From the NCBI GenBank assembly GCA_033762625.1, contig JANRLI010000016.1, forward strand, positions 77,660 to 141,659: a stretch of DNA of 64,000 nucleotides, written 5' to 3'. A program made the translations under genes and the position numbers. Positions 7,222 to 61,766 of this stretch are shown here, piece by piece (positions within the stretch are counted from its first letter, which is position 1; each line of letters opens with the position of its first letter). Below the pieces are notes generated by a model, which was not told the origin of the DNA, did not search any database, and saw only the letters and a list, made by a program, of their open reading frames with translations. This DNA comes from Alphaproteobacteria bacterium (GTDB taxonomy: Bacteria > Pseudomonadota > Alphaproteobacteria > UBA9219 > RGZA01).

Positions 7222-7275
7222 TAATTCGATCTAGGTGACCCATTCATCCGCATAATACATGATGAAGGGCACAAA

Positions 7276-7304: not shown

Positions 7305-7317
7305 ATATGGTAGCGGC

Positions 7318-9000: not shown

Positions 9001-9014
9001 CCAAAGGACCTTTT

Positions 9015-9440: not shown

Positions 9441-9600
9441 GTTTTATGACCCAAATGTACAAATCCTGAGGGCACTTCCCCTTTAATATTATTATCGTTT
9501 TACTTTCGAAACAGGCGTGCTTCTATATGCCCAGCAGGACACGCTCCGCTGTGTGCGGCCTGCATAGCGCTCAAGCCCTATTTTTCGAAAGGTGTATTTC

Positions 9601-27437: not shown

Positions 27438-27604
27438 AGCCTTATATAAAGGCGACGGTGCACGTGAATAGTGTTACCAAAAATTAATCAATAAAAATAA
27501 CGACTTATACATTTTTTAATGGCTTTTGACGCAAATTATACGCGTATAGCCCGTATATAGAGTATGCGCTTTAAAAAAAAGGCGCATACGAAACACGTTC
27601 AGCG

Positions 27605-30600
27605 ATGACCGATTTTCGTTTGAGATCACTGCCAAAAACTGAATTCGCCCGTATGTTGCGCACGGGCAAAAAGGCATTGTGCTGTCTCGTGTCGTTTGCA
27701 TTCTTTGCCATGCAGACAATGCCATTGCTCGCCAATCCGGTTAATGGAACGGTAAGTGCGGGCAGCGCCAATATCAGCTCTGCTGGAAATACCCTCACAG
27801 TCACCCAAACAACCGATAAAGCCGTCATCGACTGGCGCGGCTTTGATATCGCGAAGGGTGAAACCACGCGCTTTGTTCAGCCATCCTCTTCGTCCATGAC
27901 ATTGAACCGCGTGAGCAGTAACGCGCCGAGCTTCATCGACGGCAATCTGACTGCGAATGGTAATCTGGTTGTTGTAAATCCGAATGGCGTGTGGTTCGGA
28001 CCCAATGCACGCGTCGATGTCAACGGCCTCATCGCCAGTACGGCGAATATCAGCAATAACGCGTTCATGAACAATACCGGCATCCTAAATTTCGATGAAG
28101 CCGGAAACCCTGATGCAGCGATTATAAATGATGGCCTTATCACCGCCAAAGATGCAGGACTTGTCGGGCTTGTTGCACCAAATGTCATCAATCGTGGCAT
28201 CATTTATGCTCGCCTTGGCCGTGTAGCACTCGCATCCGGCGATACGGCGACGGTGGATTTATACGGCGATGATCTGATCAAGGTTGCGGTTTCGGACAAA
28301 GTCAAATCACAACTCGTCAGCAATAGCGGTGTGATTGCTGCCCCTGGCGGAACCATCGCGCTGACCGCCGCCGCCGGAAAAGACATCGTCAACAGTTTGA
28401 TAACCGTGCATGGCGAACTGGCTGCGCCCAGCATCCGCGAACATAATGGCAAGATTATCATCGCAGCCCAAGGCAGCAACAAGACAACCAAACAAGGCCA
28501 TAGCACTGTCCTCGTCTCTGGCATTCTCGACGCATCGGGCCGCAATGCAAGTGAACATGGCGGCAGCATTCAGGTAACGGGTGATAATATCGGCTTATTG
28601 GCTGGCACCCGCATCGATGCATCGGGCAGCGATGGATTATCCGGAACAACACTTGGCAAAGCAATTTCTTCCATGCGCATCGGTGCAGCCGGCGGGGATA
28701 TCCGCATCGGCGGTGATTATCTGGGCGGCGGTCATACACCCACCGCGCTGAACCTTTACGTCGATAAGGATGTGTTGGTGTTGAATGATGCCCTGAATAG
28801 CGGCGATGCAGGCCGAACCATCTTCTGGTCGGATGGCACGACACAATTCTACGGCAATGTCTATGCGCGTGCACTGGGCGGCAAAGGCATTCATGCCACC
28901 ACATGGAATGCGATTGCGGGCGGCAATGCCGGTGATGGCGGCTTCATCGAAACATCCGGCCACGGACATCTGGACGCTGGCGGCTATGTTGATCTCACCA
29001 GCAGCAACGGTTCACGGGGCACCTATTTCCTTGACCCGACCAACATCACCATCTACGGGAACTTCGCACCGAACTACGCAACGGTCATCACAGGTTCAAC
29101 CGGCGCGCTTTCCGCCAGCTTGAAACTATGGGTGGATTCAAGCGATACCGCCAATGTCAATCTCACCTACAGCGCACTGACCACAGCAGGCGCGAATAGC
29201 TGTGCAAGTTCATGCCTAACCGCGAACGGCACATCCGGCGCAACAACCATCACCACAAGCGCTAACATCGCTTCTACACTTCAGGTCGGCCAACGCCTTC
29301 GCCTTGGCGCTGCCGGCAGCGTAACAGCCGCCTCCACGCTTGGCACAGACACCTACACCATCAGCTCCATTTCCGGCACCACTATCACATTCTCCAGCGC
29401 ACTCACCGCGACATACACAAACGCAGTGGTCTATGCCGGCTACGTATCACAAATGACTGATAAAAGCGGTCTGGGTAATAACGCGACGCAGGCAACGGCC
29501 GCGAACATGCCGCTATGGATAAGCAATGGGTTTAATTCAATCGGGACCACGAATTACTCTGGCAGCTCCTACCTCAATCTCCCGAACCTCATGTCAGGCG
29601 CAACAGCGGGCAGCGGTTTTTTCAGCGCGATCAATGCGGCCGATCCGCCGGGTACCGGAAGCCAGACAGGTATGCCTTTTGGTAATTGGGGCACCGGCAT
29701 TCAATCCCACTATGTCTGGACGGACGGCGTTGTATACGATTCATTCGGCTCCAATCTCAGAAAGACCGCTGCAAATCCTGTTCCGGCATTGACGACAGCC
29801 AATGTGTATGGGGTCATCTCTGCGGCGAATGACTGGCGCGACTATATCAACGGACAAGCTCTTTTCTCGACCACGACGAACACCGTCGCATGGGGCACAA
29901 CGCCGACGATTGGTAATAATGTTGGCTCGTATTTCTTTACAGGAAAACTTGGTGATGTTTTTGCCTATAACAAAGCTGTATCCGCGAACGAACAGACGCT
30001 GTTGAACCAGTACATATCCGGAAAATGGAATGTTGCACTTCTTCCTCCGGGTAGTGGCGCAACTGAAGTTGCGCAGGCAACCGCAAGCGTGCAGAAAGGC
30101 GATGCGGTTGATGGGTACAGCGTCTTTACAACCCGTTATTTACAACGCTTATCGCAATCCGCAAATATCAGCTTGCAATCGTCGAATAACATCACCCTTG
30201 ATTTTCAGGGCGATAATATGAATTTCACGACGGCAGGTCGCACCCTCACCCTGACAGCAGGAAATCAGATTACAACAGCATCTACCGGAACCATCACGAC
30301 CAATGCGGGGGCGATCACCTTGAATGCCACCAACGGCATTTTAATCAATAATGCCTTCACGATTAATTCTGCAAATGGCGCGGTCAATATCAATAACGCT
30401 GTTACGCTTGCCGCGAATTTGAGTGTGACATCCGGTTCAGGCACACTAACCTTCGCCAGCACCATCGATGGCGCAGGTGGTTTGACCACAAGCTCTACCA
30501 ATGGTGCAACAATCTTCAACGGGGCTGTTGGTGGCACAACGCCGATTACCAGCTATACCGGAACAGGCCGCGACCTTACCATCAATCAAAACATCACCAG

Positions 30601-33600
30601 TAGCGGCAATATCAGTGCTGCATTCACGCGTGACATCACCCTTGCCGCAACGAAAACGATTACAACGGGCGCCGCAGGCGCGCTCACACTCACCGCTGCC
30701 GGTAACAGCGTAAACGGCACAGGAAATCTGAACCTCAATGGTAATCTCAGTGTTGGCACCGGCGCTTTAACACTATTATCTGGTGTGAATGGCACGCGGC
30801 CAAGCTGGACCGCGACGACAAGCAACCTTGTCCGTCAAGGCGCAACTTTTGGCACAGTGTCCATTCAGGGTTTTCTCGATACCACGATCTCGCGCGACAT
30901 TAACAGCAGCGGCAACATCACACTTCTTTCAAATCGCGATCTGACCTTAAGCCCCGCAAACACCCTGACAACCAGCGCCACAGGCGCCCTCAGCATGACC
31001 GCTGCAAACGGTTCAACAGCTGGCACGGGCAACCTTACGATCAATGGCAACCTTAGCGTGGGTACAGGCGCGCTCACTTTCCTGTCGGGAATTAATGGCA
31101 CACGGCCAAGCTTAACGGTCACAACCACAAATCTTGTGCGTCAAGGCGCGACATTCGGCGCGGTCAGTATCCAAGGATTCAATGCCTTCACACTCAATCG
31201 CATTTTGAATTCAACGTCATCTGTGCTCTTTGCCAATAACACAACAACGACACTACAGAACAACGTAACAAGCACGGCATCAACCATCACATTCAGCAAT
31301 CCGGTCATTATCGCGGAAGCTACGAGCATCAATGTTTCCACAACCAATCAGGCAATCACGTTTGGCAGCACCATCACCGATACGGCAGGCGGCGTTACCG
31401 AAACCCTTACGGTCAATCCTGGCACATCTAGCGCGACCTTCACTGGCGCCGTGAACGGTGTGGCCATAACGGTCAGCGCAGGGTCTGCAACGCTTTCATC
31501 GGCATGGGGCGCAACCTCGGCGCTGGGCGCAACCAGCATCACCACCACAAGCTCTCTCACATTACCTGCGATTACCGCTGCATCGCTTAGCGTCAACACA
31601 TCTGGCGCAAGTTCAAGTTTGCAAGTCAGCGGCAGTCTTTCAACAACGCTCAGCGGCGGCGCGCTGAGCCTGACCAGCGGCGCATTCATCGTCAGCAATG
31701 CTGCATCCACAATTTCCAGCACCAATGGTGCCATCACGTTCAATGCAGGAAGTTCGCTGTATCTTGCAACCGCATCGGCCGCGATCAACAGCACGGGCGG
31801 CGCGATTACCTTTACGGGTACCAATGGCATAATTGTTGGCGCGGACACTTCGGTGAATAGTGGCGGCGGCAATATTAATTTTAATCAGGCTGTCACCATG
31901 GCAGCTCCGCTCAGTCTGACGCTTGGAACCGGCACACTCACTTTTGCGAGCACGATTGACGGATCCGCACCATCCTATAGCACCTTCAGCGTTCTGGCAG
32001 TTGGCGCGGGCGGTGGTGGTGGTGGCATGGATGCTGCAACACGAGGCTCTGGCGGCGGCAGCGGCGCTGCAGTTGATGCGGTCGTGAATGTGTCGGCTGG
32101 CGCTGTTTATACCGTTGCGGTTGGCGGCGGCGGCGCTGGTGGTACAAATTCGCTTTCATCAGCTGCAGGTGGTGCAGGCGGTGTGAATGGCGGCGGCTCT
32201 GGCGGTGCAGCGGGTGCATCGGGTACCAGTGGTGGCGGTGGCGGCGGTGGCGGATTCTCAGGAATTTATATCGGCGGAACCTATTACGTGGTCGCTGGCG
32301 GTGGCGCGGGCGGTGGCGGCGGTAATGAAGGCTTTGCAAAAAGTGTTGGCGGCGCAGGTGGCGGAACGCAAACCTCCAATACTGGCACGACATCGGGCGG
32401 CGTTGGACAAAGCTATTCGGGTGATGGTGGCGGTGGTGGCGGTGGCGGTGGTGGCTTCTTGGGCGGCGCCGGACAAACCGGTATTGCCGTATCGACACCG
32501 GCAGCCTTCAGCAATGGCGGCAGCAATTATTCGAATCCCGGCAATGTCTCCGCCACGATCACGCTGGGTAATGCGGGTTCCGCCAACGCGGTAAGCACCG
32601 GCGGCGGCGCAGCGACCATCGCAGCAGGCAGAGCGACATTCTATAGCTATGGCAACAATCTAGGGGTGGGTGGTACTGCCGTAGGTAGCGGAACGGCAGG
32701 CACAAATGGTGCTGTCATCATCCGTTACACAGGCACGACTGCGCAAGCATTGGTGGTGGGCGGAACCATCACAACATCGGGCGGCGATGTCATCGTGACC
32801 TATGCCAACACCGGTACAAATAGTTCATTCAGTCCGATCGCCGGATGTTCGGGAAATTGTAATCTGACCATCAATGCCGGCACCGTGAATTTCGGCGGGA
32901 ATGTGGGAAGCACACAGGCGCTCGATGCCGTATCTGTAACAACCACCAACGGCTTGACACTACCAAACATCACCGCCTCCAGCGTGATAGCCCGCACAAC
33001 AGGTGTCGCAGCAGATCTAACCATTGCCGCAGCGAAAGTCATCACCGCAAGCGGCAGCGGCGACGCAATCAAATTGGCGGCGGGCAGGAACTTCATCAAT
33101 AATGCGGGATCAGGTGCGCTTGTCACTCCATCCGGCAGATGGCTGGTATATTCAACCAATCCTTCAAATGATACGATTGGCGGCCTCAGCAATTCATTCC
33201 GCCGCTTCAGCTGCACCTATGGCGGTTCATGCCCATCTTTCCCTGGAACAGGTAACGGTCTTCTCTATACCACCACACCTCTACTGACGATCACCCCGAA
33301 TGCGCTCAGCAGTATCGTCTATGGCGCAGCAGCACCGAATTTGAGCGGCTATGCGTACACAGCAACGGGATATCTGGGTTCGGATTCCAGCGCCGATACG
33401 TTGACAGGATCATTGACCGGCAGCAGCAGTTATATAGCGGGTTCGAATATCGGCACCTATAATATCAACTACGGTCTTGGCTCGCTTTCATCGGTATTGG
33501 GTTATGGTTTTAGCTATGCGAATAACGCAAGCGCATTCACCGTCACACCGCGTCCTATCACCATTACCGCTGATGCAAAAACCAAAACCTATGGCGCAGC

Positions 33601-34735
33601 CGATCCAAGCCTGACCTATCAATTAACAAGCGGCTCGCTCTATGGCAGCGATAGCTTGACAGGTACGATTGCGCGCACGGCTGGTGAAAGCGTGGCAGGT
33701 GGTCCATACTCCATCAACCAGAACACACTTTCAGCTGGCAGCAATTATACGATTACCTATGTATCCGATAATCTGTCCATCACACCTGCAGCCCTGACAG
33801 TGACGGCTGCTGCAAAAACCAAGACCTATGGCGCGGCTGATCCTGCACTCACTTACACCTATTCCGGCTTGACGAACGGCGATACCGCATCGGTATTCAC
33901 TGGTGCATTATCGCGCGCGGCTGGTGAAACCGTGACAGGTGGACCATATGCCATCAACCAGAACACACTTACAGCTGGCAGCAATTATACGATCACCTAT
34001 ACCGGAAATAATCTATCCATCACACCGGCAACACTGAACATCACCGCCAATGCGCTGAGCAAAGTATATGGCACCAATGATCCAACACTTACCTACACCA
34101 TGTCGGGTGGAACGAATATCGCATTCACCGGGGCACTCTCCCGCGCGATCGGTGAAGCCGTGAACAGCTATGCTGTCTCCCAAGGCACGCTGAGTGCAGG
34201 CAACAACTATCACCTCAACTTTGTAAGCAGCACATTCGCTATCACACCGGCGACGCTCTATGTCGCGGCCAACAGCATCACCAAGGTTTACGGCGCGGTT
34301 GATCCTGCGCTCACCTATTCGGTATCGGGTCTGGCAAATGGCGACATCCTAGGCAACGTATTAACGGGTGCATTATCACGCGAAAGCGGAACCATGGTCG
34401 GCTCCTACCGTATCACCAAACATACACTAGCCTCTAACAGCGCTAACTATACGCTCGATTACACTTCTGCATTATTCAATATCATCAGCAATGACATCCC
34501 CGTAACCGTGACGCGCGTATCGCAAGACCCGACCTTGAACATGCCAACAGCCGTGCATACAACCGAGCCAAACAGTCCGACGACAACGACAACCCAAAGC
34601 CAAACCAGCACAACAAGCAATAACCCGAATGTCTCTGCGTCTGAAGTACCAACAGATTCACAAGGCGCATGGCTGCGCATTTCACCTGCACTGGCTGCTG
34701 CACTTGGCGAAGCACCCGTTTTCATCAAATACTAA
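27605..34735 (+). CDS. Two-partner secretion exoprotein TpsA (filamentous-hemagglutinin-like, 2376 aa) with N-terminal TPS domain, Gly-rich segment and C-terminal MBG-type repeats
   Basis: TPS domain NPVNGTVSAGSANISSAGNTLTVTQTTDKAVIDWRGFDIAKGETTRFVQPSSSSMTLNRVSS...GNLVVVNPNGVWFGPNARVDVNGLIASTANI; Gly block GAGGGGGGMDAATRGSGGGSGAA...GGGGGGGGF; >=5 repeats of ...KTYGAADP.LTY...GALSR.AGE.V.GGPY.I.QNTL.AGSNYTITY...NLSITPA.L. Confidence 0.85.
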   Translation: MTDFRLRSLPKTEFARMLRTGKKALCCLVSFAFFAMQTMPLLANPVNGTVSAGSANISSAGNTLTVTQTTDKAVIDWRGFDIAKGETTRFVQPSSSSMTLNRVSSNAPSFIDGNLTANGNLVVVNPNGVWFGPNARVDVNGLIASTANISNNAFMNNTGILNFDEAGNPDAAIINDGLITAKDAGLVGLVAPNVINRGIIYARLGRVALASGDTATVDLYGDDLIKVAVSDKVKSQLVSNSGVIAAPGGTIALTAAAGKDIVNSLITVHGELAAPSIREHNGKIIIAAQGSNKTTKQGHSTVLVSGILDASGRNASEHGGSIQVTGDNIGLLAGTRIDASGSDGLSGTTLGKAISSMRIGAAGGDIRIGGDYLGGGHTPTALNLYVDKDVLVLNDALNSGDAGRTIFWSDGTTQFYGNVYARALGGKGIHATTWNAIAGGNAGDGGFIETSGHGHLDAGGYVDLTSSNGSRGTYFLDPTNITIYGNFAPNYATVITGSTGALSASLKLWVDSSDTANVNLTYSALTTAGANSCASSCLTANGTSGATTITTSANIASTLQVGQRLRLGAAGSVTAASTLGTDTYTISSISGTTITFSSALTATYTNAVVYAGYVSQMTDKSGLGNNATQATAANMPLWISNGFNSIGTTNYSGSSYLNLPNLMSGATAGSGFFSAINAADPPGTGSQTGMPFGNWGTGIQSHYVWTDGVVYDSFGSNLRKTAANPVPALTTANVYGVISAANDWRDYINGQALFSTTTNTVAWGTTPTIGNNVGSYFFTGKLGDVFAYNKAVSANEQTLLNQYISGKWNVALLPPGSGATEVAQATASVQKGDAVDGYSVFTTRYLQRLSQSANISLQSSNNITLDFQGDNMNFTTAGRTLTLTAGNQITTASTGTITTNAGAITLNATNGILINNAFTINSANGAVNINNAVTLAANLSVTSGSGTLTFASTIDGAGGLTTSSTNGATIFNGAVGGTTPITSYTGTGRDLTINQNITSSGNISAAFTRDITLAATKTITTGAAGALTLTAAGNSVNGTGNLNLNGNLSVGTGALTLLSGVNGTRPSWTATTSNLVRQGATFGTVSIQGFLDTTISRDINSSGNITLLSNRDLTLSPANTLTTSATGALSMTAANGSTAGTGNLTINGNLSVGTGALTFLSGINGTRPSLTVTTTNLVRQGATFGAVSIQGFNAFTLNRILNSTSSVLFANNTTTTLQNNVTSTASTITFSNPVIIAEATSINVSTTNQAITFGSTITDTAGGVTETLTVNPGTSSATFTGAVNGVAITVSAGSATLSSAWGATSALGATSITTTSSLTLPAITAASLSVNTSGASSSLQVSGSLSTTLSGGALSLTSGAFIVSNAASTISSTNGAITFNAGSSLYLATASAAINSTGGAITFTGTNGIIVGADTSVNSGGGNINFNQAVTMAAPLSLTLGTGTLTFASTIDGSAPSYSTFSVLAVGAGGGGGGMDAATRGSGGGSGAAVDAVVNVSAGAVYTVAVGGGGAGGTNSLSSAAGGAGGVNGGGSGGAAGASGTSGGGGGGGGFSGIYIGGTYYVVAGGGAGGGGGNEGFAKSVGGAGGGTQTSNTGTTSGGVGQSYSGDGGGGGGGGGGFLGGAGQTGIAVSTPAAFSNGGSNYSNPGNVSATITLGNAGSANAVSTGGGAATIAAGRATFYSYGNNLGVGGTAVGSGTAGTNGAVIIRYTGTTAQALVVGGTITTSGGDVIVTYANTGTNSSFSPIAGCSGNCNLTINAGTVNFGGNVGSTQALDAVSVTTTNGLTLPNITASSVIARTTGVAADLTIAAAKVITASGSGDAIKLAAGRNFINNAGSGALVTPSGRWLVYSTNPSNDTIGGLSNSFRRFSCTYGGSCPSFPGTGNGLLYTTTPLLTITPNALSSIVYGAAAPNLSGYAYTATGYLGSDSSADTLTGSLTGSSSYIAGSNIGTYNINYGLGSLSSVLGYGFSYANNASAFTVTPRPITITADAKTKTYGAADPSLTYQLTSGSLYGSDSLTGTIARTAGESVAGGPYSINQNTLSAGSNYTITYVSDNLSITPAALTVTAAAKTKTYGAADPALTYTYSGLTNGDTASVFTGALSRAAGETVTGGPYAINQNTLTAGSNYTITYTGNNLSITPATLNITANALSKVYGTNDPTLTYTMSGGTNIAFTGALSRAIGEAVNSYAVSQGTLSAGNNYHLNFVSSTFAITPATLYVAANSITKVYGAVDPALTYSVSGLANGDILGNVLTGALSRESGTMVGSYRITKHTLASNSANYTLDYTSALFNIISNDIPVTVTRVSQDPTLNMPTAVHTTEPNSPTTTTTQSQTSTTSNNPNVSASEVPTDSQGAWLRISPALAAALGEAPVFIKY

Positions 34736-34916: not shown

Positions 34917-35070
34917 AATGGTGGGCGATGGTGGATTCGAACCCCGTTTGCGAAGCAAACAAAACAATGCCGTAGGTTCGATGAAGATTTGAGAATGGTG
35001 GGCGATGGTGGATTCGAACCCCGTTTGCGAAGCAAACAAAACAATGCTGTAGGTTCGATGAAGATTTGAG
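34917..35070. repeat. Two tandem 77 bp units each containing a copy of the tRNA-Lys 3' end (T-arm+acceptor+CCA); att-site scar-like
   Basis: Unit aatggtgggcgatggtggattcgaaccccgtttgcgaagcaaacaaaacaatgcYgtaggttcgatgaagatttgag x2 (1 mismatch), third copy of the first 27 nt is the genuine tRNA 3' end at 35071. Confidence 0.7.
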
Positions 35071-35072
35071 AA

Positions 35073-35148
35073 TGGTGGGCGATGTAGGATTCGAACCTAC
35101 GACCTATTGATTAAGAGTCAACTGCTCTACCAACTGAGCTAATCGCCC
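35073..35148 (-). tRNA. tRNA-Lys (anticodon CTT), 76 nt, CCA encoded
   Basis: GGGCGATTAGCTCAGTTGGTAGAGCAGTTGACTCTTAATCAATAGGTCGTAGGTTCGAATCCTACATCGCCCACCA; 7 bp acceptor stem perfect, D-arm GCTC/GAGC, anticodon stem GTTGA/TCAAT, loop CTCTTAA, T-arm GTAGG-TTCGAAT-CCTAC. Confidence 0.85.
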
Positions 35149-35282: not shown

Positions 35283-37523
35283 TTAATTGCTGCCACTACC
35301 TGGATGCGGGTCTGCGGGCTTTGCGACATGCCCATTACCGTTCCCGTTTGTTTTCGGACGCGTTGCCGATCCCCATATACTAGTTGGTTCGCCATCATTG
35401 GCTGCACGCTGGGTCAACCCCGCCATCCAGCCTTGGCTTCGGGCGCGCATCAATTCAGCATGGGCCTCGGGAGCTTTTCTCGCCAAGTCCGACAAGCTAC
35501 GCACTTTATATTTTTCTGCCTGTACGCGGGCAGCTTCAAGCCAACGGCGCTGCGCCCCTGAGAACATGGTTACATCAAGACTATCAAGGTATTCATAAGG
35601 ATGTGTGGTGCGCGGCGTGCACATCATACGCACCGCATCGGTCGTGGGTCTGCCCATGCCCAAATTACCGCTGATGAGGGTTGCAAACACTGCTTCCTCT
35701 TCACTTACGGTTACGCCTTCAACCGATTTCACAGCGCTGCGCGCTACTGCCAATAATGGCTTCTTGGCGAGATCGCGGCGGGCTTCGGCTTTACCGATAT
35801 GCGCTTCAACAAAGGCTTCGATTTTATCAGCCGGAACTTTTGCGCGGCGAAGGAATGCGCGTGCTTTGCTTTTATCGGCCGGGTCGCTGAGCAAATGACG
35901 GCGCACCGCAAGGTAGGAGCGCTCTGGAACCACATCTTTTAATGCGCTTTGCGCATAGGCTTCAGGCAACAAGCCCGACAGATAGTTATAACAAATATGC
36001 TTTAGTAATCGGGGGTCCACTTCCTGCGGCATTTGTCCGCGGAAATAGGCCGTTGGTCGTTTATCCGGCATATCCCGCAAGGCATCATAATAATCGCGGA
36101 TATCATCCAGCAATCCGGTCAATAAGCCGTGCTGTGAAAAACGCTTGGTCAGATCAAGTCCCATGGATTTCATGCGCTTGAAGAAGCCACGTTCCAACAT
36201 CGCTTCGATAACCACTTTCGAACAAAGGGTCAGATAGAGTGCGCCAGGCGTGACCGAGCTGGCATTACCAAAATCAATCGACAGCCGACGGTTCACATCA
36301 AGAAATGCGCGCGCCGCCATCATCATTGCTGCACTTTCGGTTTCGGCCAGCCCCTTAGCCATGAAACTTTGGGCAAGCGGGTTAATTGCATACACCATCG
36401 CCGATGGCACCGCGCCGCCCGGCAAGCGCGCATAGCGCAATTCTTCGCCAGTAAAAATATTGCTATCCGCGCGGTAGGCACGCTCCAGCTTGGCAATTAC
36501 ACCTTCCATACGATCAAGAATTTCCAGCTGCGCTTCGCTTGGCATGGCGCCATAGCCGAATTTCGCAGCCTGCACCATCAATGCCTTGGTATCGGCAAAT
36601 CCGCGTCCACCTGGAATACTATCCAAAGTTAAACGGCTGATCGCAGCTTCACGGCCTTCATTATGCTTGATATGGCTAACAGCCGCAGCAGCAGCCATGG
36701 TATTCGCGCCCAGCGCGTCATCGGTCTGGTGAGTGTGAATGCCAATTTCCAAAACGCGGTTATATTTTTCTTTGAACTGTTCGGCGATCATCAACAACAC
36801 GTTGGTCACCGAATAGGCGTTGCCGTCCTTCACTTCGCCGGGCTTGTCATTCAATTGGCCGATCATATCCTTGATACTGATACGGCTGATCACATCGGGG
36901 TCAACGGCTTGTGCGATCAATGCGCGTTCGAACAGATGGCGATAATGTTCTGAGGTAAAACTGTCATCTGCCGTATAGCAAATAGCTAGCTCGCAGCTGA
37001 CATTATATCCCTTAGCGCGCATCGCGGTTAAAATCCGCAAGGTGGCGGCGTATTCTTCGGGGTTATTTTGTGCTTCGAATAAACGGAACACCACTGGGCG
37101 GCCCTTAACATCACCCTTATTCTGTGCGCCGGCTTTTTGCGCCATGGTTTCCAGAACATAGGTCAGATCATCTTCGTGCAAAGCTTCCAAACCCACGGCA
37201 AACGGGCCGCGCACCAACAAACGCATTTCCACATCGGGTGGTAATTTCTTATCCATATGCACAATCGATTCCAACGGTGGACGGCCAAGCATCACATCGC
37301 GTTGTGGCTGTGCGCCGCTTGGACCCTCGATCGCAGTGATTTTTGCAGGGCCGGCTTGGTTGAATTGACCCACTAAATCATAAAACAAATCCAGCTTTTC
37401 ATGGTTTAGCGGGATGCGATTTCCATAGGATGACTGGCTCCAGTCACGAATGACGAGCACATGGCCAAGCGAAAACGCACTTTCATCGGAAACGGACACA
37501 GCAGAAGAAACAGTATCAACCAT
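35283..37523 (-). CDS. Pyruvate-carboxylase/oxaloacetate-decarboxylase-type carboxyltransferase (HMGL-like TIM barrel + PYC_OADA conserved region) domain protein, no biotin-carrier domain, 746 aa with long unique N- and C-terminal extensions
   Basis: VVFRLFEAQNNPEEYAATLRILTAMRAKGYNVSCELAICYT (FRxFDxxND-like), SIKDMIGQL (IKDMAG-like), IGIHTHQTDDALGANTMAAAAAV (HxHNxxGxAxAxxLAAxxAG-like), RLPGGAVPS (QIPGGMLSN-like); no AMKM biotin motif. Confidence 0.5.
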   Translation of the reverse strand: MVDTVSSAVSVSDESAFSLGHVLVIRDWSQSSYGNRIPLNHEKLDLFYDLVGQFNQAGPAKITAIEGPSGAQPQRDVMLGRPPLESIVHMDKKLPPDVEMRLLVRGPFAVGLEALHEDDLTYVLETMAQKAGAQNKGDVKGRPVVFRLFEAQNNPEEYAATLRILTAMRAKGYNVSCELAICYTADDSFTSEHYRHLFERALIAQAVDPDVISRISIKDMIGQLNDKPGEVKDGNAYSVTNVLLMIAEQFKEKYNRVLEIGIHTHQTDDALGANTMAAAAAVSHIKHNEGREAAISRLTLDSIPGGRGFADTKALMVQAAKFGYGAMPSEAQLEILDRMEGVIAKLERAYRADSNIFTGEELRYARLPGGAVPSAMVYAINPLAQSFMAKGLAETESAAMMMAARAFLDVNRRLSIDFGNASSVTPGALYLTLCSKVVIEAMLERGFFKRMKSMGLDLTKRFSQHGLLTGLLDDIRDYYDALRDMPDKRPTAYFRGQMPQEVDPRLLKHICYNYLSGLLPEAYAQSALKDVVPERSYLAVRRHLLSDPADKSKARAFLRRAKVPADKIEAFVEAHIGKAEARRDLAKKPLLAVARSAVKSVEGVTVSEEEAVFATLISGNLGMGRPTTDAVRMMCTPRTTHPYEYLDSLDVTMFSGAQRRWLEAARVQAEKYKVRSLSDLARKAPEAHAELMRARSQGWMAGLTQRAANDGEPTSIWGSATRPKTNGNGNGHVAKPADPHPGSGSN

Positions 37524-37732
37524 AATGAAATTTCCTAAATGAATAGATCAGTTTGAAATACGTCGTGAACCTTATGGAACAAAGCTAATCATAAATGAGG
37601 AGGGCAAAAAAGCGTTTTTTTATCCATAAGGGTATCAGTATGCCCTTTAAGCCTAAACAACACCTTTATGTGCGTAAAATTGCGCCAATACCCTGATATT
37701 ACGGGCATTTCTTAACGCCCCTTAATACAATA

Positions 37733-40700
37733 TTATGCTGCCGCCAATGCAGGCGCCCAATGCTCGCGCTGCGCACGTTTTTCAACGCGGCGCACACCCA
37801 TGGAGTGGTCGGATGCGCCATCATAAATCTGATGTCCTGAAAGCCCGCGCGCAATACCCGCCAAGCGGAACATATATTCCGCATCCTTGCTATACGGCTG
37901 GTCCGGCGTTTCCATCGCCTTGATATACAGCGTTTCCCGCGCGATGCGCGAAAAGTCCTGCATGCGTGCGCCCATGCCCATTTGTTCATCGATATGCTGC
38001 ATGGTGATCTTGCGGATAAGGAAAGATAACTTGCTGCATGTTTCGGGGTTTGGGTTTGCTAATTCATCCTTGCTGATGAAGCCTTCGGGAATTTCAACGC
38101 CCTTGGCCTGCAAATACGGAACGGCCGCGCCCACAATATCCAACGGCAAACTCTTGGTGAAGTAATCCATCGTCTCAATGCTTACCTTTGGCGCGCCGCG
38201 CTCCTCGCGTTGCTTCAATAAATCGACAGTGAACTGCACATTGCTGATCGCCACACCAAACGCGGGGAAATCGGCAACCGCCGCGCGGTAAATAGGCGAT
38301 ACTTTATACAATGTTTGCAGGCCTTTTGGCGTTAAGGCATCGTTCTCGAAGATCACCACATCATCGCCAAATGCCTGCTGCGCATCACGCAATAATTCAG
38401 CGCGCAGATCAGGGCGCGTGCCATATAGCTGGTTGATGTATTTCGCCATATTGCGCATTGGCAATACGGCAAAGCCAACCCCCATATCCAATCCCGTCGT
38501 CGTAAAGCCAATCGTGCGCATATCGCCGGGCGCAACCGGTTTGGTGTTCGGATAAACGGCTTTGATACCGCCGGTTTCACTACGGCCTTGGCGTGAACCG
38601 GGATTATTCAACGTATGGTTCACATCATAAAAGCCAACTTCGCCCATGGCTTTGCCCAATTGGTTTTGTGCGCCATAATGGTTTTCCAGATAATCCTCAA
38701 TGGAATTGTCGATCGCATCATTCAATGCGTGTTCGCGCCCGTAATTCCACGATGCGCCATTGCCCTTCGATTTTTTAACCAGCTCCAACGCGTTGCGCGC
38801 CACCAATGTTGTCTGCAAACGCTGGAAGCGTTCGCATAGACGCAATTCGGGATTATCGCCGCCTTGATGCGTGTCCTCCATCCAATCGGCCAAGTTCGCG
38901 TCCTTGTTGAATGCGGTCGTGGAACGCACGCCGCCACGCGCCGTATCGCTTTTGCTGCCGCCATGGAACTGGCGCACATGATAGGCGGTTGGGCGTTCGT
39001 TCATTTGTTTTAAAATACCCGAAACATCCTTGGCTTGAATACGCCCATCGCGCACATAAGCTTGCAGAATTTTGGGGAATAATTCCTTCATACCCGGCAC
39101 CAGCAAATTGGCCTGGTCATAAATATTGCTGCGTGCGCGGGGCAAACCGCCACGGCGCATGCAATCGCTGTGCGCGAACTGGATTTTCAGCAGATTCACG
39201 ATGCGGGTTGGGTCACCTTGCGCCATTTCCCACATATGGTCACGCCATGCGCGCTGCTTGAACACATCTTCGAAAATGGGCACCGCCTGTGTCAGCGTTT
39301 CAATATCTTCGAGCAACGGTACAATAACCATATTCACGCCGGTCATTTTGGAAACCAACAATGTCTCCATCATTTGCAATGCGCCCTGGCATTCTGCCAA
39401 TACGTGGTCGGTGATCAGCCCATCCTGCATCCCCCCTACTTCAAAGCGTTGCAGCGTGTGCAGCGTGATGACATCTGCGTCGTGTTTGCTGTAATTGCGC
39501 ATCGTATCTGCGGTCTTACCTTCGCTCTTCAACCGCGCAAAGAAATCGGTTTTCAGTTTACCCAGTACATCACCGCCCTTGCCCAGCGCACTATTCAGCA
39601 AGGCAAGTTTTTGCGCATCTTCCAAACCGGCATAATCCTCGATTTTGTAACCGAACAGTGTTTCATTGCCATTCAACAAGGTGGCCATCACCGGCTCATA
39701 CACTTCTGCGGTTTCGCGCAAATGGAAATTCAAAAGCCCAAGGCCTAGCATTTTCGATTTACGGATAAGCGATAGCGCGGCTTTTTGCTGTGCGCCTTGG
39801 GTTGTGTGATACGCGGCAGTAAGCGATTGTTGGAACTTCGCATTCACTTCGTTGATATTGCCGCCATCAAATGCATAGACATTTTTAATTGCAGTCAACG
39901 CGCCTTCATATTCTTCGCGTGATAAGGGCAGATCAACGCCATTACCTGCACCTGCAATGCGCTTTAACAATGGCTCGATGATATCGGCCATTTCTGCGTT
40001 TTTAGCGGCCAGATAATCATTCCATGTACCGCCATCTGGCGCGCCATCCACCACCAAACCACTGTCATTTAATTGCTGCGCATACAATTCCGAAGCCTTA
40101 TGACGGAACAGCGCCGTGGCAAGCAATAAATGCTCGGAACGAATGTTGTTGTTGCCATCCTTATCGCCCATCACCCATGTGGCGAAACGCAAACTAAGCT
40201 CGGTCAGCAGGCGTTCCTGCGCGTCATATTCATAGGGCAGTATTTTCGCATCCGATAAACGCTGCATCGCGTTATCGTTCTTGCGATAGATCTCGTCGAT
40301 GTTACGGGTGAAGTCATCGGTAATATCCGCAAGCGACGCCATAATCTCCCCAAGCGGCGTCAAATTCGCCAGATTGCCGTCGTCATCCTTGAACGTCAGA
40401 TCGGCTTCCTTCATGCGCTGCAACGCTTCGAACGCTTCGCCGCGTCCGTTCATGTAATCAAGCAGCAAATGGGTTTCACCCGCATTCACGCGGCGGGTCA
40501 TTTCGCGCTGCGCCAAGGCGAACACACGGCGCGCATCGGTGAATGCGCTGGTCGTGTACCGTGTGGGGTGCGATGTGGAAACGGATGTGATCACGGGCGT
40601 CGCCAGTGCCGCGCGCATTTCCGCGCCGTTGGTGATCTCGCCAATACGGATGATTTCGCTTAGATAATGCTCCAATCCTTCAGGGATGATGGTTGAAAAA

Positions 40701-41152
40701 TCGGCCGTGCCGCGTCCATGCTGCACAATAAAATCAAATGCGCGGTCACGTTCTGGGCGGGCATCTTCCACCACATTGTCATGGCTGTGGGGCGCGGCGA
40801 CTTTGATAACCTGCCCGATGAATACCACATGTTCCATCACGCGGCGCAGGCGCGCGGGTTCGTTCTTGTATTTCTGGAATACACTGTCGAACACACCGTG
40901 GCGGCGTGCTTCCACGGCTTTTTCCATGCCGTAGAGTGTATTCAGAAAATTCGCATCGGCGAATTCATGCGCGCTATAGACACTGCTGTCGATGACCGGT
41001 GTGATCAATTCATCCGCGATCACTTCAAGATCAGGGATAAGATCGGCATCTTCTTCTGGAACCAGATGCTGCAAGATAGGGGCAATGAATGCCTTGGCGG
41101 TGCGCGCTTGGTAATAGGAGCGCAGATCTTCATTACTAATTCCGTCGAGCAC
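37733..41152 (-). CDS. Highly divergent phosphoenolpyruvate carboxylase-like protein (1139 aa)
   Basis: VSTSHPTRYTT (cf. PEPC VLTAHPTE), WVMGDKDGNNN (cf. WMGGDRDGNP), MRNYSKHDADV (cf. MIGYSDSGKDAG), FHGGSKSDTARGG (cf. FHGRGGSVGRGG) in the canonical order; lacks C-terminal QNTG. Confidence 0.45.
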   Translation of the reverse strand: MLDGISNEDLRSYYQARTAKAFIAPILQHLVPEEDADLIPDLEVIADELITPVIDSSVYSAHEFADANFLNTLYGMEKAVEARRHGVFDSVFQKYKNEPARLRRVMEHVVFIGQVIKVAAPHSHDNVVEDARPERDRAFDFIVQHGRGTADFSTIIPEGLEHYLSEIIRIGEITNGAEMRAALATPVITSVSTSHPTRYTTSAFTDARRVFALAQREMTRRVNAGETHLLLDYMNGRGEAFEALQRMKEADLTFKDDDGNLANLTPLGEIMASLADITDDFTRNIDEIYRKNDNAMQRLSDAKILPYEYDAQERLLTELSLRFATWVMGDKDGNNNIRSEHLLLATALFRHKASELYAQQLNDSGLVVDGAPDGGTWNDYLAAKNAEMADIIEPLLKRIAGAGNGVDLPLSREEYEGALTAIKNVYAFDGGNINEVNAKFQQSLTAAYHTTQGAQQKAALSLIRKSKMLGLGLLNFHLRETAEVYEPVMATLLNGNETLFGYKIEDYAGLEDAQKLALLNSALGKGGDVLGKLKTDFFARLKSEGKTADTMRNYSKHDADVITLHTLQRFEVGGMQDGLITDHVLAECQGALQMMETLLVSKMTGVNMVIVPLLEDIETLTQAVPIFEDVFKQRAWRDHMWEMAQGDPTRIVNLLKIQFAHSDCMRRGGLPRARSNIYDQANLLVPGMKELFPKILQAYVRDGRIQAKDVSGILKQMNERPTAYHVRQFHGGSKSDTARGGVRSTTAFNKDANLADWMEDTHQGGDNPELRLCERFQRLQTTLVARNALELVKKSKGNGASWNYGREHALNDAIDNSIEDYLENHYGAQNQLGKAMGEVGFYDVNHTLNNPGSRQGRSETGGIKAVYPNTKPVAPGDMRTIGFTTTGLDMGVGFAVLPMRNMAKYINQLYGTRPDLRAELLRDAQQAFGDDVVIFENDALTPKGLQTLYKVSPIYRAAVADFPAFGVAISNVQFTVDLLKQREERGAPKVSIETMDYFTKSLPLDIVGAAVPYLQAKGVEIPEGFISKDELANPNPETCSKLSFLIRKITMQHIDEQMGMGARMQDFSRIARETLYIKAMETPDQPYSKDAEYMFRLAGIARGLSGHQIYDGASDHSMGVRRVEKRAQREHWAPALAAA

Positions 41153-41321
41153 GATGGGTTATTCCTTTAAAAAATCAGACACTGAATTTGGCGTTAAAAA
41201 ATGCTTCCACTTCAAACCGGCCAACCTTATTGCCCGGAAAGCTTAACGGCTAAACCTTGCAACTAAAGAGCGTTATTTTGCAGTTGCAAAATATGGGGAA
41301 TTCGCCCAAAAACTTGACTAA

Positions 41322-41789
41322 ATGAGTATGAATTCAATTCGCCCCTCCATTGCCTTGTATCAGCCCGATATGCCGCAGAATTGCGGGGCAATCATGCGGC
41401 TTTGCGCATGTTTTGGCGTGCCGTTGCACCTTATCGAACCCTTTGGCTTTGTATGGGATGACGCAAAGGTTAAACGCGTGGCGATGGATTATATTAATTT
41501 TGTGAACATGACCCGCCACAAGGATTGGGACGCGTTTCTTAACGCCAGCAAAGGCCAACGCTTGGTGCTCCTGACTACAAAATCCTCCGCGCCCTATACC
41601 GAGTTTAAATTCGAACCATCGGACATCCTGCTTCTGGGCCGCGAAAGCGCAGGTGTGCCTGATGACGTGCATGCCATCGCCGATGCCCGCGTGGTTATCC
41701 CGTTGCAAAAAGGCCTGCGTTCTTTAAATGTAGGCATGTCCGCCGCGATTGTACTTAGCGAAGCCTTACGACAAACGAGAAATATGTAA
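41322..41789 (+). CDS. trmL: tRNA (cytidine34/uridine34-2'-O)-methyltransferase TrmL (SPOUT/SpoU family)
   Basis: 155 aa; PQNCGAIMRLCACFG...LLGRESAGVP...SLNVGMSAAIVLSEALRQ SPOUT knot motifs. Confidence 0.8.
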   Translation: MSMNSIRPSIALYQPDMPQNCGAIMRLCACFGVPLHLIEPFGFVWDDAKVKRVAMDYINFVNMTRHKDWDAFLNASKGQRLVLLTTKSSAPYTEFKFEPSDILLLGRESAGVPDDVHAIADARVVIPLQKGLRSLNVGMSAAIVLSEALRQTRNM

Positions 41790-47868: not shown

Positions 47869-50223
47869 TTAGGCAGCTTTACCGCCTTTGACCACTGTTG
47901 GCTTCGCCTTCTTGTCGGCTTCGGCATTGCCAATCGCTTCATGGGCAGCAAGCGCCGCCATGGTCACGATTTCCGACACGGTTGCGCCCATGCCCACGAT
48001 TTGTGCGGGGCGCTTCAGGCCTTGCAGCAATGGGCCAATCATATTGCCATCGCGGCTATTGACCATTTTCTGCATCAGCTTGGTTGCGATATTGGCAGCT
48101 TGCAAGCTTGGCATAATCAGCACGTTCGCAGGGCCAGTTAAACGGCAGAACGGATAGAGGCGCTTCATCAAATCATGATCCAGCGCAACGTCCGGTGCCA
48201 TTTCACCTTCATACTCAAAGCTCACTTCATGGTCATCCAGTTTGGCCACAACTTCACGCATGAAGTTGGCGCGTTCATCATTCATCTGCTGACCAAAGGT
48301 CGAATAGGAAATGAGCGCCACGCGTGGCTGATGGCCCATTTGTTCCGCGAACTCTGCTGCGCGGATTGCAATTTCCGCATGACGGTCAGGATTGGTGGAT
48401 GGGTTCACGGCAGTGTCCGCGAGGAAAATGGTGCGGCCAGCCGAAATGCTCATCGACAAACCGAATGCGCTGTATTGCGTGCGCGCATCAATCGCCTTGC
48501 GGATATCTTCATAGCACACATTAAAGTTACGCGACAAACCGGTCACCATGGCATCGGCTTCACCGTGGGCAACCATGCAGGCTGCGAACACGTTGCGTTG
48601 CTGGTTCACCATGCGCTGGCAATCGCGTTCCAGCAAGCCGCGGCGCTGCAAGCGCTTGAACAGATATTCGGTGAACCGCTTATTGTGCTGCGATACACGG
48701 GAATTGTGAATCTCAATTCCCTTCATATCGGCAAGGCCAAGCATGCCGATTTTTTCTTTCACCACTTCTTCACGCGCAATCAAAATCGGCGTGCCGTAAC
48801 CGGCATCGCGGAATGAAATCGCTGCGCGGATCATGCGTTCTTCTTCACCTTCGGCAAAGACAACACGCTGCGGATTATTGCGAACTCTTGTAAAGATGAG
48901 CTCCATGGTATCCGCTGTGGGGTCAAGGCGGGCGCGCAATGCCGAACGGAATGCTTTTTCATCGGTAATGGGTTTACGGGCAACGCCGCTTTCCACCGCT
49001 GCCTTGGCAACTGCGGTTGGAATTTCCACAATCAAACGCGGATCGAAGGGCACAGGAATGATATAGTCAGGGCCATAACGCAGACGGCGACCATAGGCTG
49101 CATCCACTTCATCGGGCACGTCTTCACGGGCGAGTGCCGCAAGTGCTTTTGCCGCTGCAATCTTCATTTGATCATTGATGGTGCGCGCACGAACATCCAA
49201 TGCGCCGCGGAAGATATAAGGGAAGCCCAAGACGTTATTAATCTGGTTCGGGTAATCCGAACGGCCAGTAGCGATGATCGCATCGGGGCGAACTTCACGT
49301 GCCAGCTCAGGGCGGATTTCAGGGTTGGGGTTGGCCATCGCGAAAATCGCGGGGTTCTTGGCCATCGCCTTGACCATTTCCGGTGTCACGCAATTCGCAA
49401 CCGATAACCCCCAGAATACGTCAGCGCCGCGCAACGCATCAGCCAAGGTTCTGTCCTTGGTATTTGCAGCATGGGCCGATTTCCACTGGTTCATATCTTC
49501 GGTGCGGCCTTTGTAAATCACGCCTTTGGTATCGCACATAATCACGTTGTCATGCGGCAAGCCCATGGTCTTGATCAGCTCAACGCAGGCAATCGCCGCC
49601 GCGCCCGCACCGTTGACAACCAGCTTAATGTCTTTGATGTTTTTACCGGTGATATCCAGCGCGCTCACCAAACCCGCTGCTGAAATAATCGCCGTGCCAT
49701 GTTGGTCATCGTGGAATACGGGAATGTCCATCAGCTCGCGCAAACGCTGCTCGATCATGAAGCATTCGGGCGATTTGATATCTTCCAGATTGATACCGCC
49801 AAAAGATGGACCAAGGTATTTTACTGCATTGATAAATTCTTCGGGATCTTCGGTGTTGATTTCCAAATCGATACTGTCCACATCGGCAAAGCGTTTGAAC
49901 AATACGCTTTTGCCTTCCATCACAGGCTTACTCGCCAGCGCGCCAAGGTTACCCAGACCCAGAACAGCCGTACCATTCGAAATAACCGCAACCATGTTGC
50001 CCCGCGCCGTATAGTCATAGGCCTTATCGGGATTCTTGTGAATTTCAAGGCACGGCGCCGCGACACCCGGCGAATAGGCCAGCGACAAATCGCGCTGGGT
50101 TTTCATTGGCTTGGTTGGCACGATTTCCAGTTTTCCCGGACGGCCCGACGCGTGCATGATGAGCGCTTCTTCATCAAGGCTGTGGTTGGACTGTTCGGGG
50201 TTGATGTCGTTGTTCTTAGCCAT
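47869..50223 (-). CDS. maeB: NADP-dependent malic enzyme MaeB (malic enzyme domain + C-terminal phosphotransacetylase-like domain)
   Basis: 784 aa; LAYSPGVAAPCLEI, NGAGAAAIACVEL Rossmann, C-terminal PTA-like domain GLSRNFNV... Confidence 0.9.
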   Translation of the reverse strand: MAKNNDINPEQSNHSLDEEALIMHASGRPGKLEIVPTKPMKTQRDLSLAYSPGVAAPCLEIHKNPDKAYDYTARGNMVAVISNGTAVLGLGNLGALASKPVMEGKSVLFKRFADVDSIDLEINTEDPEEFINAVKYLGPSFGGINLEDIKSPECFMIEQRLRELMDIPVFHDDQHGTAIISAAGLVSALDITGKNIKDIKLVVNGAGAAAIACVELIKTMGLPHDNVIMCDTKGVIYKGRTEDMNQWKSAHAANTKDRTLADALRGADVFWGLSVANCVTPEMVKAMAKNPAIFAMANPNPEIRPELAREVRPDAIIATGRSDYPNQINNVLGFPYIFRGALDVRARTINDQMKIAAAKALAALAREDVPDEVDAAYGRRLRYGPDYIIPVPFDPRLIVEIPTAVAKAAVESGVARKPITDEKAFRSALRARLDPTADTMELIFTRVRNNPQRVVFAEGEEERMIRAAISFRDAGYGTPILIAREEVVKEKIGMLGLADMKGIEIHNSRVSQHNKRFTEYLFKRLQRRGLLERDCQRMVNQQRNVFAACMVAHGEADAMVTGLSRNFNVCYEDIRKAIDARTQYSAFGLSMSISAGRTIFLADTAVNPSTNPDRHAEIAIRAAEFAEQMGHQPRVALISYSTFGQQMNDERANFMREVVAKLDDHEVSFEYEGEMAPDVALDHDLMKRLYPFCRLTGPANVLIMPSLQAANIATKLMQKMVNSRDGNMIGPLLQGLKRPAQIVGMGATVSEIVTMAALAAHEAIGNAEADKKAKPTVVKGGKAA

Positions 50224-61112: not shown

Positions 61113-61766
61113 ATGCTCATTACCGTTATCGACTATGGCTCCGGCAATTTGCGTTCGGCGACCAAGGCGTTTGAAAAAGCCGCGGCGGACGCATCTGATA
61201 TTCGGGGCAATGTTCGCGTCATCCTCACCAATAAAGCAGAAGATGTTTTAAAAGCCGACCGCATTGTATTACCGGGCCAAGGCGCATTTGCCGATTGCAT
61301 GAAGGGGTTATCATCCGTTCCCGGCATGATCGAAGCCTTGAACGAAGCGGTGATTAAAAAAGCCAAACCGTTTTTCGGCATTTGCGTGGGCATGCAATTA
61401 TTGGCAACGCGTGGGTTGGAACATGGTACGCATGCGGGGCTGAACTGGCTTTCGGGTGAAGTGCGCAAATTACCCATCAACAATCCGGATTTAAAAATCC
61501 CGCATATGGGCTGGAACACCATCACCCCATCCAAACCAAACCACCCGCTACTCAAAGATCTGCCCACAAACCCTTACGTCTATTTCGTGCATTCTTATGC
61601 GTTATTTTTAGAAGATAAAAATCACGAACTTGCCGCGTGTAACTACGGCGGCAGTTTCACCGCCGCCGTTGTCAAAAACAATATTGCCGGCACACAATTC
61701 CACCCTGAAAAGAGCCAGAAAATCGGCCAGCAATTGGTACGCAATTTTATTAACTGGTCGCCCTAA
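61113..61766 (+). CDS. hisH: Imidazole glycerol phosphate synthase glutaminase subunit HisH
   Basis: ITVIDYGSGNLRS, GICVGMQLL (catalytic Cys), HMGWN, FHPEKS motifs. Confidence 0.9.
   Translation: MLITVIDYGSGNLRSATKAFEKAAADASDIRGNVRVILTNKAEDVLKADRIVLPGQGAFADCMKGLSSVPGMIEALNEAVIKKAKPFFGICVGMQLLATRGLEHGTHAGLNWLSGEVRKLPINNPDLKIPHMGWNTITPSKPNHPLLKDLPTNPYVYFVHSYALFLEDKNHELAACNYGGSFTAAVVKNNIAGTQFHPEKSQKIGQQLVRNFINWSP

Follow-up and report, generated by a model that had tools for sequence, protein, structure and literature searches.

The stretch of DNA analysed here (the window) comprises 64,000 nucleotides of contig JANRLI010000016.1, part of an alphaproteobacterial metagenome-assembled genome (MAG), the source contig being 151.7 kb long. 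It carries two neighbouring genes whose products appear to be enzymes of the phosphoenolpyruvate (PEP)–pyruvate–oxaloacetate node. One encodes a 1139-aa protein related to PEP carboxylase (PEPC), and the other a 746-aa protein related to the carboxyltransferase (CT) domain found in the transcarboxylase 5S subunit, pyruvate carboxylase (PC) and the oxaloacetate decarboxylase subunit OadA. We refer to these proteins as PEPC-like and CT-like. Both open reading frames (ORFs) had been proposed in a preliminary description of this DNA, which placed them as a co-directional pair between a tRNA and trmL with a malic enzyme nearby, and we recover all of these features as follows:

37733-41152, minus strand: PEPC-like gene (1139 aa, GTG start), a very divergent member of the PEP carboxylase family PF00311
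35283-37523, minus strand: CT-like gene (746 aa, ATG start), a predicted stand-alone 5S/PC/OadA-type carboxyltransferase core without a biotinyl domain
37524-37732, minus strand: AT-rich spacer of 209 bp between the two genes
41153-41321: divergent intergenic region of 169 bp that separates the PEPC-like gene from trmL and presumably holds the promoter of the pair
35073-35148, minus strand: tRNA-Lys(CTT), flanking the CT-like side
41322-41789: trmL (SpoU_methylase), flanking the PEPC-like side as part of a divergent trmL-hemF pair
47869-50223: MaeB-type malic enzyme (malic, Malic_M and PTA_PTB domains)

The larger protein is a divergent homologue of PEPC, as the preliminary description had proposed. 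It matches Pfam PEPcase with 67.1 bits (E=1.1e-18, gathering cut-off 22.4), with a good alignment only over residues 441-679, and reaches 64.7 bits against the NCBIfam ppc equivalog (PRK00009), far under the cut-off of 815. A profile built from nine members of its family matches plant PEPC structures (E=3e-12). The AlphaFold2 (AF2) model, generated from a nine-sequence alignment, is poor (pLDDT 62.8), and Foldseek searches with this poor model return PEPCs as the sole significant matches (E=7e-11 to 1e-8 over ~1190 columns), at 11-14% identity and template modelling (TM) scores of 0.35-0.46. An identical protein is recorded at NCBI as 'MAG: phosphoenolpyruvate carboxylase [Alphaproteobacteria bacterium]'.

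To place individual residues, we aligned E. coli ppc (NC_000913, 883 aa) with the PEPC-like family and its distant relatives (13 sequences), residue roles being those established in structural work on the E. coli and maize enzymes. Nine positions are kept in all aligned sequences, namely H138, W248, D254, R396, E506, D543, R587, R699 and R713 in E. coli numbering, which correspond in the window to H195, W326, D332, R479, E615, D663, R739, R854 and R879, respectively. These include the catalytic histidine (H195, within VSTSHPTR; 13/13 sequences), the divalent-metal ligands E506 and D543 (E615 in PLLE and D663 in AHSD) and the PEP-binding arginines R396, R699 and R713 (R479, R854 and R879). The catalytic His and Arg that the preliminary description had wanted checked are thus retained, apart from the equivalent of R581, which is Gly. 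The PEPC-like glycine-rich loop reads FHGGSKSDTARGG, against FHGRGGxxGRGG in PEPC, and is one residue longer; its second arginine, R587, is kept as R739. R253 is replaced by Lys in every PEPC-like sequence, and K546 and R581 are also changed relative to E. coli Ppc. All four motifs previously quoted for this protein are present, at residues 191-198, 326-336, 553-560 and 729-741, and only one of their pairings needed correction: in place of NYSKHDAD (553-560), it is FAHSDCMRRGG (659-669), with the metal-binding D663 (E. coli D543), that matches GYSDSGKDAG.

The PEPC-like protein therefore belongs to the same superfamily as E. coli Ppc and maize C4-PEPC (PF00311) and is apparently homologous to them over its full length. 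Common to all is the motif order TxHPT, W-MGD-DGN, (L/I)R(Q/E)(E/T), PL(F/L)E, (Y/H)SD, FHG...RGG, GSR...GG, (L/M)R(A/T)I, together with the catalytic His, the Glu and Asp ligands, the three PEP-binding Arg and the loop Arg. In contrast, the aspartate/malate allosteric site of E. coli Ppc is absent, the residues aligned to K773, R832 and N881 being I, G and L and showing no conservation. The C terminus ends in ...ALAAA, the family keeping 'LAA(A)' where PEPC has QNTG, which agrees with the missing QNTG tail noted earlier. At 1139 aa against 883 aa, the protein has ~250 extra residues, in line with the ~200 aa given in the preliminary description. We read the sequence as that of a very divergent, apparently full-length PEPC homologue that probably still works as an enzyme. 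A candidate biotinylation site within this protein, the Lys of 'QRMKEA', was rejected since it is not conserved among relatives.

The 746-aa protein consists of a CT core (~19-440), a helical domain (~440-700) and a disordered Gly/Asn/Pro-rich tail (699-746), and its identical NCBI record is annotated 'hypothetical protein SFW65_08200'. It matches no Pfam family at E<=1, including HMGL-like, PYC_OADA and Biotin_lipoyl, and gives weak matches in NCBIfam to PC (26.7 bits, cut-off 965), PycB and OadA. Searched as a single sequence against Protein Data Bank (PDB) sequences with phmmer, it returns no match. A profile of its family, however, matches OadA (2nx9, E=7e-14), PC (E=4e-10) and 5S (1rqb, E=9e-10), so only family profiles reach the solved CT domains. 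These alignments span the motifs RDxxQS, LxRG, FRxF(D/E)AxN, CYT, KDM, HxH and PGG. The AF2 model (pLDDT 78) shows an eight-stranded TIM barrel at residues 19-303 followed by helices, with 1rqb (E=2e-12, target TM 0.71), 4jx4 and 2nx9 (TM 0.74) as its best Foldseek matches. Profile and fold together bear out the earlier identification as a biotin-less carboxyltransferase of the PC/OadA/5S type, including the lack of a biotinyl domain; of the profile tests suggested for it, the similarity to CT domains of known structure was found, and the expected Pfam matches to HMGL-like and PYC_OADA were not.

The active site of the CT-like protein appears complete. Its metal site (D27, K218, H263 and H265) aligns to the RDAHQS, LKDMA and HCH motifs of 5S and OadA, and these residues are kept in every family member aligned at those columns, so the Asp-His-His ligands singled out in the preliminary description are intact and are joined by the lysine. 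Overlooked in that account was the N-terminal motif RDWSQS (residues 26-31), the site of the metal-ligand Asp; the CT motifs it did quote are present at residues 146-156, 216-224, 260-282 and 366-374. The 2-oxoacid residues R26, Q30 and R105 lie where the alignment has the motifs RDAHQS and LLRG and are likewise kept in every member aligned at those columns; we take them, and their roles, to correspond to R548, Q552 and R621 of Rhizobium etli PC. Further invariant residues are D219, M220 and T425, the last lying in SVTPGA, 56 residues past PGG, and present in every member aligned at that column. The acidic E150 of FRLFE150 is also kept, a residue that serves the biotin step in PC. Sequence and model thus suggest a stand-alone 5S/PC/OadA-type carboxyltransferase with an intact metal and 2-oxoacid site.

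Three known enzymes come closest to the CT-like protein. Propionibacterium shermanii 5S (1rqb) is the best structural match, shares all of the motifs listed above and is likewise a stand-alone protein without its own biotinyl domain; it differs in that the CT-like protein is only 15% identical, carries an additional helical domain of ~260 aa and a disordered tail, and has no 12S or 1.3S genes nearby. The best match by sequence profile is OadA (Vibrio cholerae 2nx9), the alpha subunit of a Na+-pumping oxaloacetate decarboxylase; in contrast to OadA, the CT-like protein has neither a C-terminal biotinyl domain nor oadB/oadG neighbours. The PC CT domain (R. etli 4jx4; two-subunit PycB 5ks8) agrees with the CT-like protein in fold and in its metal and substrate residues, and the window protein lacks the biotin carboxylase (BC) and biotin carboxyl carrier protein (BCCP) domains that accompany it in PC.

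An exhaustive HMMER search of 1.84 billion cluster representatives with the CT-like profile (E<1e-3) shows that the family is rare, with 90 proteins, and in a word-indexed search of 5.8 billion proteins we found 9 PEPC-like and 8 CT-like clusters. Short forms, such as that of the window, account for ~57 of the 90 representatives. A further 21 are long forms of 1447-2045 aa (among them P0038, P0039, P0042, P0044, P0045, P0047-P0054, P0061, P0064, P0065, P0071, P0075, P0084, P0091; loci L021, L022, L024, L025), in which the CT-like part is followed by the same helical region as linker, Biotin_lipoyl, Biotin_carb_N and an ATP-grasp domain. This order, CT-BCCP-BC, is the reverse of that in PC (BC-CT-BCCP). 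The biotinyl domain often has the canonical AMKM motif, and several long forms are without an obvious (A/E)MKM. Two members are extended further: P0050 has an additional N-terminal class I/II aminotransferase, which would convert oxaloacetate to aspartate, and P0047 has an additional C-terminal BPL_LplA_LipB (biotin protein ligase) domain. The N-terminal extensions of P0056, P0067, P0074, P0080 and P0083 contain no Pfam domain and so reveal no further Rosetta-stone fusions. P0096 alone has the canonical PC order, and its match is marginal (E=6e-5).

Short and long forms show the same degree of conservation at the CT active-site residues. A crude neighbour-joining tree, with P0096 as root, places the long forms as one monophyletic group within the paraphyletic short forms. 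This nesting, combined with the shared active site, indicates that the chemistry of the family is that of a biotin-dependent pyruvate/oxaloacetate carboxyltransferase. We did not find the CT-BCCP-BC order in those surveys of biotin-dependent carboxylases that were searched or are known to us.

The pair is embedded in a conserved neighbourhood. The gene order maeB, speA-like, aguA, aguB, hemF, trmL, PEPC-like, CT-like recurs in relatives whose PEPC-like proteins are 79% (L001/L011), 86% (L012) and 53-56% (L006) identical to that of the window, and at L009 (51%) the order is the same as far as the contig reaches. At L006, the PEPC-like gene is one continuous ORF of ~1095 aa (L006:9332-12619), which the JGI call splits into 170 + 872 aa, and the 810-aa gene downstream is a CT-like orthologue (32% identity, E=5e-89). 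The pair is thus kept in four lineages of one clade: the window, L001/L011, L012 and L006. The spacer between the two genes measures 232 bp in L001 and 129 bp in L006, and the trmL-hemF side of the 169-bp intergenic region is kept in L001, L006 and L009. A promoter and terminator scan, whose calls did not exceed shuffle expectation and provided no evidence for an operon, detected neither type of site on the minus strand of the 209-bp spacer, so co-transcription of the pair is possible; in the 169-bp region it called no consensus promoter. Within the window, the tRNA is the sole Rfam match.

Beyond this clade the two families mostly occur apart. A scan of 185,579 species genomes yielded nine loci, two of which carry the pair. 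Six encode PEPC-like proteins of ~1130-1205 aa that are 26-29% identical, in MAGs labelled 'uncultured Rhodospirillaceae/Alphaproteobacteria', without a CT-like neighbour, and the remaining locus encodes a 988-aa PEPC-like form. In the sister PEPC-like clade L013-L018 (for example, L016:9905-13345 and L014:9725-13153), E. coli H579 is replaced by Glu. A PEPC neighbour is missing from the short-form loci L004, L005, ERZ1426827, L028 and L029 and from the long-form loci L022, L024 and L025, and one PEPC-like gene of 51% identity is adjoined downstream by an autotransporter instead of a CT-like gene.

A second adjacency was found at L021, where the long form P0042 (MBL0318612.1; 10001-14716, plus strand) divergently adjoins a 1148-aa PEPcase protein (6206-9652, minus strand) that keeps the catalytic motifs NTEHPTD, ASWPGFDADGN, GHIRQDS, VVPLLEE and MLGYSD. 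Genes for a PF03618 kinase/pyrophosphorylase (a regulator of pyruvate phosphate dikinase (PPDK) or PpsA), threonine dehydratase and isocitrate dehydrogenase lie near this pair. By a rough estimate, the chance of a second PEPC adjacency among ~13 independent loci is ~1%. Our own reading is that the link between the PEPC-like and CT-like families is facultative, by way of a shared metabolite, and that they do not form an obligate two-component machine.

Both genes bear the marks of inherited and selected enzymes. In comparisons with orthologues, the PEPC-like gene has a ratio of nonsynonymous to synonymous substitution rates (dN/dS) of 0.08-0.18 and the CT-like gene one of 0.12-0.20, with dS near saturation, and the G+C content across both (0.505-0.52) is like that of the flanks. 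A hydrophobic N terminus resembling a signal sequence is absent from both proteins; PADLOC gave no hit, and plasmid databases contained no match to the pair. Other genes of the window include those for histidine and polyamine biosynthesis, for two-component systems and for HslV, a gene content unlike that of a strongly reduced symbiont. Next to tRNA-Lys(CTT), at 34917-35070, two 77-nt tandem units (99% alike), each beginning with 27 nt copied from the 3′ end of the tRNA, look like integration scars. These units face the TpsB/TpsA adhesin genes and not the PEPC-like/CT-like pair, and G+C on the TpsA/TpsB side rises to 0.575 at 31-34 kb, compared with ~0.51 elsewhere. Any integration at the tRNA would therefore have happened on that side, and the two-partner secretion (TPS) segment is the likelier one to have been horizontally acquired.

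These results do not sustain the more exotic suggestions of the preliminary description. The 'catalytically dead scaffolds' are contradicted by catalytic and substrate residues that are invariant in each family and by a dN/dS of ~0.08-0.2. The 'probable island' finds no support in G+C, in synteny that extends over relatives of 51-86% identity, in the plasmid searches or in the orientation of the tRNA repeats, and the 'effectors' none in the signal-peptide and PADLOC searches or in a genome that encodes the biosynthesis of histidine and polyamines. Intact residues and vertical inheritance were among the outcomes that the preliminary description had itself named as refuting, and by that measure the exotic reading fails, whereas its suggestion of a new C4-acid or carboxyl-transfer module may still apply. 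Both genes look like vertically inherited enzymes kept by selection, an unusual version of ordinary central-carbon enzymes.

We consider it very probable that both proteins are catalytically competent. For the pair as a whole we lean, with somewhat less than even confidence, towards a scenario in which two cytoplasmic enzymes act at the oxaloacetate node and the CT-like protein uses a biotin carrier in trans. The PEPC-like enzyme would make oxaloacetate from PEP and bicarbonate by means of His195 and the Arg739 loop, with Mg or Mn bound by E615 and D663 and PEP by R479, R854 and R879; here homology is evident and activity is predicted. Having lost the aspartate/malate site and the QNTG tail, this enzyme must be controlled in another way. 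In the CT-like protein, D27, a carbamylatable K218, H263 and H265 would form the metal centre, and R26, Q30 and R105 would hold pyruvate or oxaloacetate. Carboxyl exchange would then take place with a biotin carrier acting in trans, as in transcarboxylase 5S, which would make the protein the CT subunit of a split PC-like enzyme. The adjacency of the two genes would reflect co-regulation of two routes to oxaloacetate, a logic that also fits L021, where a complete long form lies beside a divergent PEPC.

Support for a carrier in trans comes from the long forms, whose monophyly among the short forms provides a Rosetta-stone argument for such a partner, and from the behaviour of canonical enzymes. 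In R. etli PC, removal of BCCP abolishes oxaloacetate decarboxylation by the CT domain, and T882 is catalytically essential (PMC5895798). Relatives fused to BCCP-BC, the retention of biotin-step residues and the inactivity of the canonical CT domain without its carrier together make exchange with a trans carrier the most likely step.

Several observations weigh against this scenario. On the PEPC-like side, the model is poor and enzyme activity is inferred from sequence; K546 is Arg in every PEPC-like sequence; and of the two loop arginines, R581 is Gly732 in the window clade, a loss for which Lys/Arg at 734 may compensate. On the CT-like side, T425 is probably the equivalent of R. etli PC T882, an assignment that we make by way of the canonical VTPSSK motif of PC, the tool alignments ending before SVTPGA. 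Neither the window nor the 10 kb around any short-form locus yielded a BCCP or BC gene in searches with tblastn and hmmsearch. OadB/OadG and 12S/1.3S partner genes are also absent near the CT-like gene of the window, the neighbours being tRNA-Lys, TpsA/TpsB, trmL, hemF and polyamine genes. When the BCCP-BC half of the long forms served as query in a word-indexed protein search, a single specific stand-alone protein emerged, in a gammaproteobacterial MAG (L020:227-4703) that encodes a 688-aa CT-like ORF and an 810-aa BCCP-BC ORF. Since the latter directly follows the CT-like ORF with a 23-nt overlap, it is best read as a split or frameshifted long form. Generic acyl-CoA carboxylase alpha subunits and biotin carboxylases filled the limit of 8000 candidates in this search, and even the long forms from which the query was built were not returned; as evidence against a trans partner it therefore carries little weight. 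Finally, short forms outnumber long ones and usually stand alone, as would be expected for an autonomous enzyme, and co-directional genes more often encode consecutive than parallel steps.

Some of these observations lend weight to a serial pathway, in which the CT-like protein would be an autonomous, biotin-independent and metal-dependent oxaloacetate decarboxylase that follows PEPC (PEP -> oxaloacetate -> pyruvate), serving as a pyruvate-kinase bypass or as a PEP/pyruvate valve alongside the nearby malic enzyme. We judge this to be somewhat unlikely in absolute terms, and nearly as likely as the trans-carrier reading. It would account for the lack of a biotinyl domain and of BCCP or BC genes near any of ~12 short-form loci, for short forms being the commoner and paraphyletic architecture, and for two co-directional genes between which no terminator was called. 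The metal and 2-oxoacid site that such a decarboxylase needs is intact, and the syntenic block that carries the pair also keeps the MaeB-type malic enzyme. It fits poorly with the loss of decarboxylase activity in a canonical CT domain deprived of BCCP (PMC5895798), with biotin-step residues that short forms keep just as well as the biotin-bearing long forms do, with a net reaction that wastes the PEP phosphoryl bond, and with L021, where the neighbour of PEPC is a complete biotin enzyme.

Were stand-alone CT-like proteins indeed biotin-independent, they would constitute a new type of oxaloacetate decarboxylase and open a new route through the PEP–pyruvate–oxaloacetate node. In its widest form, this would be a new soluble CT-fold class of oxaloacetate decarboxylase or carboxyl-handling protein, working in series or in complex with an unregulated PEPC subfamily as an ATP- and biotin-free module for PEP -> oxaloacetate -> pyruvate or for carboxyl transfer, its long relatives being an undescribed reversed-order PC. 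We hold this fuller picture to be rather unlikely.

It is improbable that the adjacency of two working enzymes merely arose once in one clade and persists through synteny only. All four paired lineages do fall within one clade that shares the wider synteny, the 51%-identical PEPC-like gene with an autotransporter beside it shows that the partner can be absent, and L013-L018 as well as most short and long CT-like genes have no such partner. However, the pair survives down to 32% CT-like identity, very different members of both families adjoin independently at L021, an arrangement of low chance by the rough estimate above, and oxaloacetate is a ligand common to both enzymes.

A physical partnership is still less probable. 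Here the CT-like protein would bind PEPC-like, either as a regulatory subunit that senses pyruvate or oxaloacetate and stands in for the lost allosteric sites or as part of a PEP-driven carboxyl-transfer machine free of ATP and biotin. Such a role would suit a PEPC without the canonical allosteric site, the ~250 extra residues of PEPC-like and the conserved ~260-aa helical domain of CT-like, both without an assigned function, and the conserved adjacency. In contrast, none of the 90 CT-like representatives is a fusion of both families, each family mostly occurs without the other nearby, and a full set of catalytic residues is unexpected in a purely regulatory subunit. Dead scaffolds on a genomic island, repurposed as secreted effectors, are scarcely credible and largely refuted: extreme divergence from canonical families, the nearby tRNA-fragment repeats and the adhesins and autotransporters of the window would favour them, against invariant catalytic residues, dN/dS of ~0.1, G+C like the flanks, chromosomal synteny, tRNA repeats that face TpsA/TpsB, and no N-terminal signal sequence, plasmid or PADLOC match.

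PEPC and pyruvate-type carboxyltransferases are textbook enzymes, and their sequence space is commonly regarded as well charted. What is new here is a divergent PEPC subfamily without the feedback site, an undescribed CT family with reversed-order PC-like long members, and the recurrent pairing of the two, the chemistry itself being probably familiar. A literature search returned nothing relevant on PEPC-like proteins, reversed-order biotin carboxylases or PEPC in protist-associated alphaproteobacteria. The PEPC-like protein lies more than 10-fold under the equivalog threshold, keeps the catalytic core and has shed the allosteric site, and could in this way help to tell residues for chemistry from residues for regulation; it may also offer a feedback-insensitive PEPC for engineering. 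The CT-like protein represents a carboxyltransferase family that is invisible to Pfam and exists either stand-alone or in CT-BCCP-BC fusions, and the locus documents a repeated genomic link between the two families.

The window has other features of note. The TPS pair at 25752-34735 consists of TpsB (POTRA_2 and ShlB; 25752-27437) followed by a 2376-aa TpsA/FHA-like protein with a TPS domain, five MBG_2 repeats and a Gly-rich block. Autotransporters of 793 and 1872 aa with PATR repeats are encoded at 10377-12758 and 13266-18884; next come genes for a hybrid histidine kinase and two response regulators. A 572-aa fusion at 7282-9000 joins MbnB/TglH/ChrH, a family of enzymes that modify precursors of ribosomally synthesized and post-translationally modified peptides (RiPPs), to DUF2063. 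At 50396-51952, a phosphoribosyl pyrophosphate (PRPP)-synthetase-like protein of 518 aa matches Pribosyltran_N from residue 192, leaving an unexplained N-terminal extension of ~190 aa. A 556-aa ORF at 58138-59808 combines Aminotran_1_2 and IGPD and looks like a hisC-hisB fusion; it adjoins hisD (56549-57919) and a GATase gene (61113-61766).

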